Assembly (NCBI RefSeq): GCF_054482525.1
Contig: NZ_CM137006.1
Length of the DNA stretch: 64,000 bases
Direction: 5' to 3' (one strand)
Under the pieces are notes generated by a model, which was given only the letters and a program-made list of their open reading frames with translations, was not told the DNA's origin and searched no databases. This document shows, in pieces, positions 3,000 through 9,546 of this stretch (the stretch's first letter is position 1; each line of letters begins with the position of its first letter). A program made the position numbers and the translations under genes.

Positions 3000-3545
<546 letters not shown>

Positions 3546-3555
3546 TTAATTATTA

Positions 3556-4848
3556 TCACAGATACGGCGACCAGGCAGGGAATTTGACCTGTCCATCAGT
3601 TGCCGGAAGACGCGCTTTGAAACGCCCATCTGTAGAAACCAAATTCAGCACGGATCCCATCCCCTGAGAAGAGCTGTAGATTACCATAGTGCCGTTAGGT
3701 GCCAGACTTGGCGTTTCATCCAGGAACGTGGACGACAGAACTTGTACGCCTCCCGTTGCCAGATCTTGTTTGGCAATGTGCTGCTGCCCACCATTGGAGC
3801 TGACCATTACCATAAATTTACCGTCGCTGCTGACATCCGCATCCTGGTTCTGCGAACCTTCCCAGGTAATACGTTGTGGCGCACCGCCGTTGATATTCAC
3901 TTTATAAACCTGTGGACGACCGGCCTGGTCAGAAGTAAATGCCAGGTTCTGGCTGTCCGGGAACCAGGTCGGTTCGGTATTGTTACTGCGACCATCCGTC
4001 ACCTGGCGGATCTGACCAGAAGCCAAATCCATTACGTACAGGTTCAGACTACCGGTTTTCGACAAGGCGAATGCCAGTTTGCTGCCGTCTGGCGAGAATG
4101 CAGGTGCACCGTTGTGACGCGGGAATGAAGCCACCTGACGTACAGCGCCATTTGCCAGCGTTTGGATGACCAGCGCGGAACGACCGCTTTCGAAGGTCAC
4201 ATAAGCCAGTTTAGAACCGTCTGGTGACCACGCCGGAGACATCAGCGGCTGCGGTGAACGGTGAACGACAAACTGGTTGTAACCGTCATAGTCAGATACG
4301 CGCAGTTCATACGGGAACTGACCGCCGTTGGTCTGAACAACGTAGGCAATACGGGTACGGAACGCACCTTTAATGCCGGTCAGTTTTTCAAACACTTCAT
4401 CACTGGCGGTATGACCAGCATAACGCAGCCACTGCTTGTTCACTTTGTACGAGTTCTGAGCAAGTACAGTACCCGGTGCGCCGCCAGTGTCAACAAGTTG
4501 ATAAGCAACATTGTAAGAACCATCCGGATTCGGAGTGACCTGACCGACAACTACAGCGTCAATGCCCAGTGCGGACCATGCAGCTGGTTGTACTTCCTGC
4601 GCACTACCCGGCTGCTGTGGCAGACGAGCGCGATCTAACGGATTAAATTTACCGCTGTTACGCAAGTCAGCAGCAACGATGCCGCCAATATCTTCAGGTG
4701 CCGCACCAGGACCCGCCCACTGGAAAGGAACAACTCCAATAGGACGACCGGAATCTACACCGCTGTCGATCACAATGCGGACTTCAGCATGCAGAACTGA
4801 TGCCCACAGTATGAGAAAACCAAATGCTACTCGTAATGCCTGCTTCAT
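3556..4848 (-). CDS. tolB: Tol-Pal system periplasmic beta-propeller protein TolB
   Basis: 430-aa product [21 protein letters not shown]...; start taken as second Met of the ORF. Confidence 0.92.
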
Positions 4849-4980
4849 CATATCTCCCTTATCTGGACCGATGGCCCACGATAATTTAGCAGAATGTTAA
4901 CAAACTAAAATACACAAAACTACCAGAACCCCGTGGCAACCGGTGCCTGATGTTGACCGTCGGAACAGTCAACATCGCGA

Positions 4981-6246
4981 TTACGGTTTGAAGTCCAATG
5001 GCGCGTTTTTGAACACTTCATATACTGCCTGGCTTGGTGGTTTCGGGATCTTCGCAAGTTTAGCTGCTGCCAACGCAGCCTGACAAAGTGCGGGATCGCC
5101 ACCTTCAGGTTTGATATCCAGTAACATACCATCGGGTGCCAGTTTTATGCGCAGCGTACAGGTTTTGCCTGCATAGGACGATGCGTCATAGAACTTACTT
5201 TCGATAGCAGATTTAATCTGCCCGGCATAGTTATTGATATCGGCCCCTGATGCGCCATTGTTTTTAGTATTACCACTCCCGGCTGGCGAAGCATTGTTCC
5301 CTTTCGCCCCTCCCCCCGTTTTCGGTGCATTCTTACCAGAGCTTAGCTCACCGAAAATATCATCTGCCTCTGCGGCAGCTTTTGCTGCAGCGGCTTTTTC
5401 AGCTGCTGCTTTTGCCGCTGCCGCTTTTTTGTCTGCGGCGGCTTTTTCTGCCGCTGCTTTCTTATCAGCTGCTGCCTTTTCAGCAGCCGCTTTTTCTGCT
5501 GCTTTTTTGTCGGCTGCAGCTTTCTCTGCTGCCGCTTTCTTATCAGCTGCAGCCTTTTCAGCAGCCGCTTTCTTCTCAGCTTCTGCTTTGGCTTTTTCAG
5601 CAGCTTCAGTTGCCGCTTTCTTTCTTGCTTCAGCTGCAGCTGCTTCTGCCGCTTCCGCTTTCTTCTTCAGTGCCGCCGCGGCTGCCTCGGCTTTTTTCTG
5701 CGCTTCGGCTGCGGCTTTGGCGGCTTCTGCTTCTGCTTTTTTCTTCGCGTCTGCAGCCGCTTTCTTCGCAGCTTCTTCCGCAGCTTTAGCATCCGCTTCG
5801 GCCTTCGCTTTAGCATCTGCCGCCGCTTTCGCTGCCGCTTCTTCCGCTTGCTTCTGCTTTAACTCGGCCTGTTTTGCGGCTTCTTCAGCCTGCTTTTTCT
5901 GTTCCTGAGCAGCTAACCGCTCTTTCTCAAGTTGCTTCAGGCGTTCCTGTTCAGCCGCTTGTTTCTCACGCAGTTCTTCAGCGGCCTGCTGTTCCTTCAT
6001 CTTGCGCTGCTCATCAGAACGCTTCGCGCTTGATTCCTGGCTTTGCATGCGTTTGTACTGCTCAACTACCGCACCTGAATCAACCATGACAGCGTCGATG
6101 GATGAACCACCGCCGCCTCCGGCTGAAGCTTCTATATTCTCATCGAACGAACTCCAGATCAGCGCCGCAAATAAGATGACATGCAGCACTGCTGAAATAA
6201 TTATCGCCCGCTTGAGCTTGTCGTTTTGTTCGGTTGCCTTTGACAC
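4981..6246 (-). CDS. tolA: Tol-Pal system protein TolA
   Basis: 421 aa, N-terminal TM segment, long Ala/Lys/Glu-rich helical domain II, C-terminal domain III. Confidence 0.92.
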   Translation of the reverse strand: MSKATEQNDKLKRAIIISAVLHVILFAALIWSSFDENIEASAGGGGGSSIDAVMVDSGAVVEQYKRMQSQESSAKRSDEQRKMKEQQAAEELREKQAAEQERLKQLEKERLAAQEQKKQAEEAAKQAELKQKQAEEAAAKAAADAKAKAEADAKAAEEAAKKAAADAKKKAEAEAAKAAAEAQKKAEAAAAALKKKAEAAEAAAAEARKKAATEAAEKAKAEAEKKAAAEKAAADKKAAAEKAAADKKAAEKAAAEKAAADKKAAAEKAAADKKAAAAKAAAEKAAAAKAAAEADDIFGELSSGKNAPKTGGGAKGNNASPAGSGNTKNNGASGADINNYAGQIKSAIESKFYDASSYAGKTCTLRIKLAPDGMLLDIKPEGGDPALCQAALAAAKLAKIPKPPSQAVYEVFKNAPLDFKP

Positions 6247-6310
6247 TCTCGGTTTCCAAAAACTGTTCGCCTGTTACCCGCTCTCTTTCAAGCAAGGGAA
6301 ACGCAGATGT

Positions 6311-6739
6311 TTAGATAGGCTGCGTCATTAAACCAACCGATTTCACACCCGCACTATGTAACAAGTTCAGTGCTTTAATTATTTCATCGTAAGGCACATC
6401 TTTTGCGCCACCGATCAGAAAGACCGTTTTCGGGTTGGCCTTGAAACGGCTGGACACTTCCGCCACCACCTGCTCTGGTGGTAAACGCTCCAGGCGATCT
6501 TTATCAACCACCACGGTGTACTGACCAATACCAGACACTTCAACAATCACTGGCGGATTATCGTTACTGCTCACCGCCTGTGATTCAGTAGCGTCTGGCA
6601 GATCGACCTCCACGCTCTGGGTGATGATGGGCGCTGTCGCCATAAAGATCAGCAACAGCACCAGCAGTACGTCCAGCAACGGTACAATGTTGATTTCGGA
6701 CTTGAGATCGCGACGACCTCGTCCACGCGCTCTGGCCAT
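6311..6739 (-). CDS. tolR: Tol-Pal system protein TolR
   Basis: 142 aa MARARGRGRRDLKSEINIVPLLDVLLVLLLIF..., ExbD/TolR family. Confidence 0.92.
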   Translation of the reverse strand: MARARGRGRRDLKSEINIVPLLDVLLVLLLIFMATAPIITQSVEVDLPDATESQAVSSNDNPPVIVEVSGIGQYTVVVDKDRLERLPPEQVVAEVSSRFKANPKTVFLIGGAKDVPYDEIIKALNLLHSAGVKSVGLMTQPI

Positions 6740-6742
6740 GGC

Positions 6743-7836
<1,094 letters not shown>

Positions 7837-7985: not shown

Positions 7986-8279
7986 TTAAAAGAAGAAGAA
8001 AATCAGCCCGACAATGAGAACAATATCGGCAAGCAATGGGCAAAAAATCCCTTGCCAAAGAACCTTCTGCGGACGAAAGCCCACGCCGTGAATCACACCA
8101 GCACAGACGGCCCACATCAGCAATAAACCATGCCAGATTTCCAGTTCACTGGTCTTCGCGGCGAAACGTGATGGGTCCCAAAACATACATCCTGCTAACA
8201 GAAGCGCCATCACGAAGGAAAGCGCCCGCAGGGGGCGCTTGTCCATTACCGCATACAAGGTTGCGATAATCTTACTCAT
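7986..8279 (-). CDS. ybgE: Cyd operon small membrane protein YbgE
   Basis: 97 aa hydrophobic ORF MSKIIATLYAVMDKRPLRALSFVMALLLAGCMFW...; synteny after cydX. Confidence 0.85.
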   Translation of the reverse strand: MSKIIATLYAVMDKRPLRALSFVMALLLAGCMFWDPSRFAAKTSELEIWHGLLLMWAVCAGVIHGVGFRPQKVLWQGIFCPLLADIVLIVGLIFFFF

Positions 8280-8392
8280 CAGATGTCTTCTTGACCGGCT
8301 TTGCCTGATTCGACGTGCTCAAGCGCCAGCGCGGTGATTACCCCAAACGAACAGGCAAGAAGCGTTCCCAGAATCCATGCGAAATACCACAT
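8279..8392 (-). CDS. cydX: Cytochrome bd-I accessory subunit CydX (YbgT), 37 aa
   Basis: Reverse translation from ATG at 8390-8392 gives MWYFAWILGTLLACSFGVITALALEHVESGKAGQEDI; stop TGA overlaps ybgE ATG by 1 nt. Too short for the ORF track. Confidence 0.85.
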   Translation of the reverse strand: MWYFAWILGTLLACSFGVITALALEHVESGKAGQEDI

Positions 8393-8406
8393 TTTTAGCT
8401 CCTTAC

Positions 8407-9546
8407 TTAGTACAGAGAGTGGGTGTTACGTTCAATATCTTCTTTGGTGATACGACCGAACATTTTCCAGTAACACCAGGCGGTGTAGAGCAGAATGATC
8501 GGTACCAGAACCACCGCAACCCAGGTCATGACGTTAAGCGTCAGCTGGCTGGATGTTGCATCCCACATTGTCAGACTTGCGTTCATCATGGTGCTGGACG
8601 GCATCACAAACGGGAACATTGCGATACCGGCAGTCAGGATGATGCAGGCCAGCGTCAGGGAGGAGAACACAAACGCCCACGCGGCTTTATCCATACGTGC
8701 AGTCAGGATGGTCAGCAGCGGCAGAACCACACCCAGTGCCGGAATAGCCCACAGAATTGGCGTGTTGTTGAAGTTAACCAGCCATGCGCCAGCTTCACGA
8801 ACCACTTCTTTATTCAGCGGGTTAGAGGCTGCGTAATGGTCCATTGTCGATTTCACGACATAACCATCGATACCGTACATCACCCATACGCCAGCCAGTG
8901 CGAAACAGACCAGTGTCACCAGTGCCGCCACCTGAGCCGTTGCACGGGTACGCAGGTGCAGTTCGCCCACGGTACGCATTTGCAGGTAAGTCGCGCCCTG
9001 AGTAATGATCATCCCTACGCTCACCACGCCAGCCAGCAGGCCGAACGGGTTAAGCAGCTGGAAGAAGTTACCGGTGTAGTACAGACGCAGATATTCATCA
9101 ACGTTGAACGGTACGCCCTGCAACAGGTTACCGAACGCCACACCAATCACCAGCGGCGGAACGAAGCTACCAATGAAGATGCCCCAGTCCCACATGTTAC
9201 GCCAGCGGGTTTCTTCAATCTTGGAGCGGTAGTCAAAACCGACCGGACGGAAGAACAAAGATGCCAGCACGAGGATCATCGCCACATAGAAGCCGGAGAA
9301 CGCAGCGGCATAGACCATCGGCCAGGCAGCAAAGAGTGCGCCGCCCGCGGTGATCAGCCAAACCTGGTTACCGTCCCAGTGTGGTGCAATGGAGTTAATC
9401 ATAATTCGACGCTCGGTGTCGTTACGACCGAGGAAACGGGTGAGCATGCCCACCCCCATGTCGAAACCGTCAGTGACTGCAAAACCAATCAGCAGAACGC
9501 CAACCAGCAGCCACCAGATAAAACGCAATACTTCATAATCGATCAT
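8407..9546 (-). CDS. cydB: Cytochrome bd-I ubiquinol oxidase subunit II
   Basis: 379 aa MIDYEVLRFIWWLLVGVLLIGFAVTDGFDMG... polytopic membrane protein. Confidence 0.93.
   Translation of the reverse strand: MIDYEVLRFIWWLLVGVLLIGFAVTDGFDMGVGMLTRFLGRNDTERRIMINSIAPHWDGNQVWLITAGGALFAAWPMVYAAAFSGFYVAMILVLASLFFRPVGFDYRSKIEETRWRNMWDWGIFIGSFVPPLVIGVAFGNLLQGVPFNVDEYLRLYYTGNFFQLLNPFGLLAGVVSVGMIITQGATYLQMRTVGELHLRTRATAQVAALVTLVCFALAGVWVMYGIDGYVVKSTMDHYAASNPLNKEVVREAGAWLVNFNNTPILWAIPALGVVLPLLTILTARMDKAAWAFVFSSLTLACIILTAGIAMFPFVMPSSTMMNASLTMWDATSSQLTLNVMTWVAVVLVPIILLYTAWCYWKMFGRITKEDIERNTHSLY

Follow-up and report, generated by a model that had tools for sequence, protein, structure and literature searches.

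In-frame length variation of the tandem-repeat tract of Escherichia coli tolA

The tolA gene and its neighbours

The window analysed here is a stretch of 64,000 nucleotides (NCBI RefSeq assembly GCF_054482525.1, contig NZ_CM137006.1). On its minus strand, at 4981..6246, lies an open reading frame with a GTG start that encodes a protein of 421 aa. This product matches NF007065, the NCBIfam equivalog model for TolA, the cell envelope integrity protein of the Tol-Pal system, at 554 bits (cutoff 213, E = 1.7e-166) and TIGR02794 at 308 bits (cutoff 59, E = 7.5e-92). The DNA of the surrounding 1,666 bp (4781-6446) shows 100% identity with E. coli SCU-102 and 99.1% with K-12. Every complete E. coli genome but one has a match to this stretch (5,425 of 5,426), the gene being annotated as tolA in all records. 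Together with the TolA models, these matches identify the window as E. coli chromosome and the gene under the repeat as E. coli tolA. In the same set of genomes two of the matches lie on plasmid-typed records, some chromosomes match in two places, and one genome of the 5,426 gives no match.

The cluster ybgC-tolQ-tolR-tolA-tolB-pal-cpoB is intact: the six neighbours of tolA match equivalog models, in the expected order and on one strand. The two motor partners of TolA are encoded at 6311-6739 (tolR, E = 3.8e-82) and 6743-7435 (tolQ, E = 6.2e-154), both recognized by their NCBIfam equivalogs. On the other side of tolA the NCBIfam equivalogs are tolB (3556-4851, as an open reading frame), pal (3000-3545, likewise as an open reading frame) and cpoB, also called ybgF (2199-2990), all on the minus strand. 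The reading frames of ybgC and tolQ overlap by 4 bp (7432-7435). Upstream of ybgC, at 7986-9546 of the minus strand, are open reading frames for membrane proteins of 97 aa and 379 aa, which we take to be ybgE and cydB. Downstream of cpoB, at 1133-2034 of the same strand, stand seven consecutive tRNA genes, five for tRNA-Lys(UUU) and two for tRNA-Val(UAC). They are presumably the known E. coli lysT-valT-lysW-valZ-lysY-lysZ-lysQ cluster, itself a tandem array.

How is the 421-aa protein laid out? Domain III, the globular C-terminal domain, is encoded at 4990..5274 of the minus strand (Pfam PF06519, aa 325-419, E = 2e-38). When the sequence was compared with the PDB, aa 292-421 were matched by the domain III structures 1TOL, 1S62, 2X9A and 3QDP. 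Cryo-EM entries with full-length TolA constructs also exist (9k49, 9ddm and others); the search was by sequence only, and the resolution of their repeat region is not visible from it. In the translation, the N-terminal membrane anchor of domain I, AIIISAVLHVILFAALIWSSF, is encoded at 6145..6207 of the minus strand and contains S18, H22, L29 and S33, of which we take L29 and S33 to be the leucine and the second serine of the SHLS motif. This motif of the TolA anchor has been described, and H22 is essential (PMC10666116). The region that contains the repeats holds 88 Ala, 41 Lys and 25 Glu in 171 aa, a composition consistent with an extended α-helical domain II.

Structure of the repeat tract

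The canonical repeat tract occupies 5368..5574 of the minus strand and encodes aa 225-293. Parsed unit by unit, it comprises 13 imperfect units, four of 18 bp and nine of 15 bp, for a total of 207 bp. Their order, identical to that in K-12, is KKAAAE KAAAD KKAAAE KAAAD KKAAE KAAAE KAAAD KKAAAE KAAAD KKAAAA KAAAE KAAAA KAAAE. Within the repeat region the translation contains KKAAAEKAAADKKAAAEKAAADKK. A tract of 13 imperfect 15/18-bp repeats is on record for the tolA of MG1655 (Zhou, Michiels & Aertsen 2012, PLoS One, PMC3477136).

An earlier sequence-only reading had placed imperfect tandem repeats here, visible on the plus strand and coded on the minus strand, and had assigned them to the Ala/Lys/Glu-rich helix of TolA domain II. 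Both statements are borne out. The 41-nt unit that it quoted, GCTGCCGCTTTCTTATCAGCTGCAGCCTTTTCAGCAGCCGC, occurs exactly at 5528-5568, the arrays are returned by Tandem Repeats Finder (TRF), and the reading frame 4981..6246 runs on the minus strand; the TolA models, Pfam, the operon and the unit parse, in which the acidic residue is Glu or Asp, confirm that the helix segment is that of TolA domain II. The interval that it had given, 5390-5900, does contain the repeats, but its limits need correction: compared with 5368..5574, its start clips about 1.5 of the last units and its end adds about 325 nt of more degenerate sequence.

TRF had also been named as a check on the repeats. It returned overlapping arrays at 5369-5589 with periods of 15, 30, 33, 45 and 78 bp. 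The top one is a higher-order repeat on the minus strand with a period of 78 bp, equivalent to five units, which spans 5418..5576 in 2.0 copies with 88% matches and a score of 255. The 41-nt unit lies inside this 78-bp repeat, and a diverged copy of it stands 78 nt upstream on the plus strand. In self-comparison the top offset is again 78 bp, with 0.88 identity over 60 nt and the sole exact run of 20 nt; offsets of 33 and 111 bp follow.

Upstream of the canonical tract in tolA, at 5575..5900 of the minus strand (aa 116-224), are degenerate, indel-prone Ala/Lys/Glu-coding repeats that also belong to domain II. A weaker TRF block with periods of 12 and 24 bp covers 5688-5859, and the degenerate repeats reach to about 5860. 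Less conserved units upstream of TR1 in tolA have been noted before (PMC3477136).

Is the periodicity of the DNA more than the periodicity of the peptide demands? Codon shuffles of the region gave a best TRF score of 65.7 ± 20.5 with a maximum of 187, and none of the 300 reached the observed 255. When the protein was held fixed and synonymous codons were permuted among identical residues, the score was 179.6 ± 44.4. Since these synonymous permutations still score high, most of the repeat signal comes from the peptide. The DNA repeat might then be a mere by-product of selection for a periodic Ala/Lys/Glu helix, with neither duplication nor instability at the level of the DNA. This proposal draws support from the mean of 180 that synonymous permutation alone retains, and from the longest exact repeat, which, at 20 nt, does not reach significance on its own against the shuffles. 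However, the observed score exceeds 299 of the 300 synonymous permutations, with one reaching 255. The copies of the repeat thus share their codon choices too, as expected from duplication or conversion of DNA. The natural alleles described below bear on the same question.

What of the opposite strand? The sequence-only reading had noted there a 224-aa open reading frame and called it spurious; the frame exists, at 5234..5908 of the plus strand in the list of open reading frames, and the dismissal was sound. Its product is low-complexity and rich in Ala, Phe and Ser. It matches no NCBIfam or Pfam family, and it is annotated in none of the 22 RefSeq records inspected. A stop in this antisense frame needs a tolA codon that starts with TA or CA and is preceded by a suitable wobble base. 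The Ala/Lys/Glu/Asp tract almost never supplies such codons, so that the antisense frame stays open. It ends at the TGA of 5906-5908, which faces GCT-CAG (Ala-Gln), the earliest point at which a codon of the tolA frame ending in T is followed by Gln. The wobble positions of the two frames coincide, all at coordinates congruent to 1 mod 3, so the codon-position bias of SNPs cannot discriminate between them. Its length might be taken to mark a real overlapping gene. Set against the lack of a family match, the lack of annotation in the inspected records, the low complexity and an openness that follows from composition, the chance of this is negligible. Judged by its sequence, the frame is a compositional by-product of the tolA frame, and 5234..5908 should stay unannotated.

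Natural length variation

If the repeats are copies made at the level of the DNA, how does their number behave among natural strains? Length frequencies were taken from two systematic samples of 60 rows each, rather than from a full census, of the 5,425 matching complete E. coli genomes. Allele-specific BLAST counts are unsuited to a census, because with short queries SNPs and 15-bp indels share one identity band. In the first sample 59 rows covered the query completely; 39 of them had the span of the window, and 20 departed from it by -108 to +78 bp. The second sample, with a shorter query, showed the length of the window in 41 of 60; in this search large indels break 1,040 of the 5,425 alignments. 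About one third of the sampled complete genomes therefore differ in length, as the sequence-only reading had anticipated when it named the tract a site of potential length polymorphism. An earlier survey of 234 isolates (Zhou, Vanoirbeek, Aertsen & Michiels 2012, Res Microbiol 163:316, PMID 22659144), as cited in PMC3477136, found 8-16 units, with 13 units in 66%. That figure agrees with the 66-68% of genomes that have the length of the window in our two samples.

Twenty-two RefSeq records were fetched, 21 of them with an intact annotated tolA. Repeat number is not identical in all strains: these TolA proteins span 384-447 aa, with lengths of 384, 385, 394, 399, 400, 404, 410, 411, 416, 419, 420, 421, 424, 425, 426, 429, 432, 436 and 447 aa. 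Their unit counts are 6, 9, 11, 12, 13, 14, 15, 16, 17 and 18. In alignments of the 21 alleles with the window, all coding indels were multiples of 3 and confined to 5369-5806, with the CDS intact; the placement of gaps within the repeats is ambiguous in such alignments.

The units can be recognized by their unit-specific codons, and each allele proves to have lost or duplicated a contiguous block of them. The 18-unit allele runs 1 2 3 4 5 6 2 3 4 5 6 7...13, and one of the 6-unit alleles runs 1 2 10 11 12 13. An allele of 384 aa and 6-unit size is present in at least five genomes and a distinct 6-unit allele of 385 aa in one, giving at least six genomes with 6 units overall. The 385-aa TolA, that of UTAK-8 (NZ_CP168991.1), consists of units 1 2 3 4 8 9/13 without units 10-12 and is known from this single genome. 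Some lineages are fixed for alleles other than that with 13 units, among them the ST131-type, with 16 units, and the O157-type alleles.

Changes also occur upstream of the canonical tract. O157-type alleles carry a 48-bp deletion at 5575-5622 (aa 209-224), a 24-bp insertion after 5782 is a duplication, and in strain JA0072 a stretch of 6 bp, 5631-5636, is deleted in frame. JA0072, which is labelled a spontaneous mutant, also has a 1-bp deletion at 4875, in the tolB-tolA spacer, the sole noncoding indel among the alleles. Strain AF23 differs by a net 3 bp only, yet has 16 units together with the 48-bp upstream deletion. Equal length of tolA can thus conceal differing structure.

Among strains whose tolA flanks show no SNP over 687 nt, up to five tract lengths are found, from which it follows that the tract changes faster than point mutations accumulate. 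Conversely, the 394-aa allele with an 81-bp deletion (window 5530-5610) sits on two backgrounds that differ at 6 of 687 flank sites and at 10 mid sites, which suggests that the deletion arose more than once or that lineages recombined. Point differences between strains cluster in the repeat-rich third of the compared stretch: 5340-5900 holds 8 of the 15 that separate the window from K-12, and 12 of 20 when several other strains are compared. Such a pattern could come from relaxed constraint or from gene conversion between units.

These alleles bring us back to the by-product proposal. If the peptide alone were responsible, natural alleles would hardly differ by whole units traceable through unit-specific codons, nor would unit numbers differ on identical flanks; spontaneous contractions have moreover been measured directly (PMC3477136). 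A purely peptide-driven periodicity is excluded by the synonymous permutations, the unit-specific codons and the differing tracts on identical flanks, and we consider a DNA repeat without duplication or instability very improbable.

Might the length classes instead be artefacts of assembling a low-complexity region? Assemblies can err here. In NIPH17_0036 (NZ_AP024561.1) tolA is frameshifted and annotated as a pseudogene with an internal stop. Its departures from the window, 104 mismatches and some 50 small indels, are confined to the repeat-rich part equivalent to window 5232-5907, and the flanks are normal. This pattern looks like local noise of assembly or polishing rather than biology. The single occurrence of the UTAK-8 allele could be read in the same way. 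But the change of +45 bp recurs in five of the sampled rows, ST131 among them, two unrelated records share the 394-aa protein WP_000030680.1, the short allele with a span of 498 bp is found in five records, and the 21 other alleles are all in frame. The PCR-based survey of 2012, as it is cited, found the same kind of variation. Recurrence over independent assemblies and the published PCR survey exclude artefact as a general explanation, and the chance that it accounts for the length classes is exceedingly small.

Mechanism, meaning and known systems

We conclude that the feature is almost certainly an intragenic tandem-repeat tract of E. coli tolA, with in-frame length variation of a helical spacer. 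Each 15- or 18-bp unit encodes K(K)AA(A)E/D/A and contributes 5-6 residues to the long α-helical domain II. At one end of this domain is the inner-membrane anchor, docked on the TolQR motor; at the other is the C-terminal domain, through which TolA reaches TolB and Pal at the outer membrane. Misaligned homologous recombination or replication slippage between similar units would delete or duplicate whole units. Such changes would always be in frame and would yield a functional TolA with a shorter or longer spacer. An ideal α-helix rises 0.15 nm per residue; each unit would then add some 0.75-0.9 nm, and the sampled range of 63 aa might amount to as much as about 9 nm, or less if the domain folds back.

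Which units would be expected to misalign? The commonest registers should be those of best higher-order similarity, at offsets of 78, 33 and 111 bp, and changes of +78, ±33 and -111 bp are found among the natural alleles. Spontaneous contractions of tolA occur at 6.9e-5, in an assay that selected contractions only; the value falls to 15% of this in recA, rises 3.3-fold in uvrD and is unaffected by mutS (PMC3477136). The differing tracts on identical flanks lend indirect support to such instability. Most of these contractions were deletions of five units, some of which reached the less conserved upstream units (PMC3477136). The bias towards five units was noted in that work without explanation and was not attributed to a 78-bp periodicity. 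The 78-bp higher-order repeat, itself five units long, may explain it simply. Taken whole, the claim that natural tolA alleles exceed the published 8-16 units, and that their breakpoints follow a 78/33/111-bp periodicity which explains the predominance of five-unit changes, is put forward tentatively, and we think it rather doubtful.

It has been speculated that units 12-13 may be indispensable because they overlap the region that binds CpoB/YbgF (PMC3477136). If the UTAK-8 allele is real and functional, then contact with CpoB is more flexible than proposed, or is dispensable in that strain.

What might the variation mean for the cell? TolA carries force from the TolQR motor to the outer membrane, and filamentous phages, like group A colicins, use it as a co-receptor for entry. 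Given these roles, variation in the length of the spacer is a plausible trade-off between bile tolerance, stability of the envelope and susceptibility to phages and colicins. In chromosomal variants built with 2, 6, 8, 13, 26 and 39 units, tolerance of deoxycholate spans four orders of magnitude and climbs monotonically as units are added, while tolerance of SDS and hyperosmolarity is wild-type in all of them (PMC3477136). Plating at high salt and low pH favoured 6-13 units, and phage fd plated best on 13 units, with 28-43% for every non-13 allele, 8 units included (PMC3477136). Domain II must be structured for transmission of force, and its nature tunes stabilization of the outer membrane (PMC10666116).

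The natural variation may nevertheless be real and essentially neutral, the mark of a tolerant spacer under weak stabilizing selection around 13 units rather than of an adaptive contingency locus. A single length prevails in about two thirds of genomes, much like the published 66%, which suggests an optimum and not diversifying selection; the unrelated domain II of TonB, put in place of that of TolA, leaves partial function (PMC10666116). The wild-type tolerance of SDS and hyperosmolarity in all variants points the same way, as does the finding that strong effects appear mainly in synthetic extremes (PMC3477136); the alleles behind the adaptive interpretation are synthetic (2, 6, 8, 26 and 39 units), and most of them fall outside the natural range. 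On the other hand, neutrality fits poorly with the monotonic response to deoxycholate, with the reduced plating of fd on an 8-unit allele that falls inside the natural range, or with the lineages fixed for non-13 alleles. We regard neutrality as a serious possibility, though not the one that we favour. Natural variation of the tract may thus tune properties of the envelope and not merely be tolerated.

The idea of a trade-off was proposed and partly tested in 2012, and the window adds no new biology to it. The polymorphism itself had by then been described and subjected to experiment, and the window carries the commonest allele, that with 13 units. Our additions are modest, namely a wider natural range and a 78/33/111-bp periodicity that matches three common indel sizes. 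In practice the tract can serve as a typing marker, and it is known to cause trouble in assembly and alignment.

How does the tract compare with other repeat-built systems? Classical contingency loci, such as those of Neisseria and Haemophilus, are built of simple-sequence repeats and switch ON and OFF by frameshifts. The tolA tract resembles them in being repeat-mediated, hypermutable and of consequence for the cell envelope. Unlike them, it consists of 15/18-bp units whose in-frame changes modulate the length of a protein, with no ON/OFF switch. We rejected an ON/OFF phase-variable locus, since the natural coding indels are all multiples of 3 and the sole frameshifted record looks like noise. 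The contractions of tolA also depend on RecA and not on MutS (PMC3477136), in contrast to classical contingency loci.

A closer analogue is domain II of TonB, a repeat-built spacer of Glu-Pro/Lys-Pro repeats that spans the periplasm in a homologous force transducer and is partly interchangeable with domain II of TolA (PMC10666116). It forms, however, a polyproline-II helix and not an α-helix, and it has no sequence similarity to domain II of TolA (PMC10666116, PMC12204202). A domain II that is helical in TolA is peculiar to proteobacteria (PMC12204202).

Nearest of all stand the tolA genes already described. The TolA of the window has the same length, unit order and operon as that of K-12, with 99.1% DNA identity over 1,666 bp; of the 15 point differences in this stretch, 8 fall inside 5340-5900. 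Levengood et al. reportedly gave the length of K-12 TolA as 421 aa in 1991. The tract of Zhou et al. 2012 shows the same in-frame variation in copy number, about two thirds of strains having 13 units, and nothing essential separates it from the tract described here, the range being 6-18 units in our alleles and 8-16 units as published.
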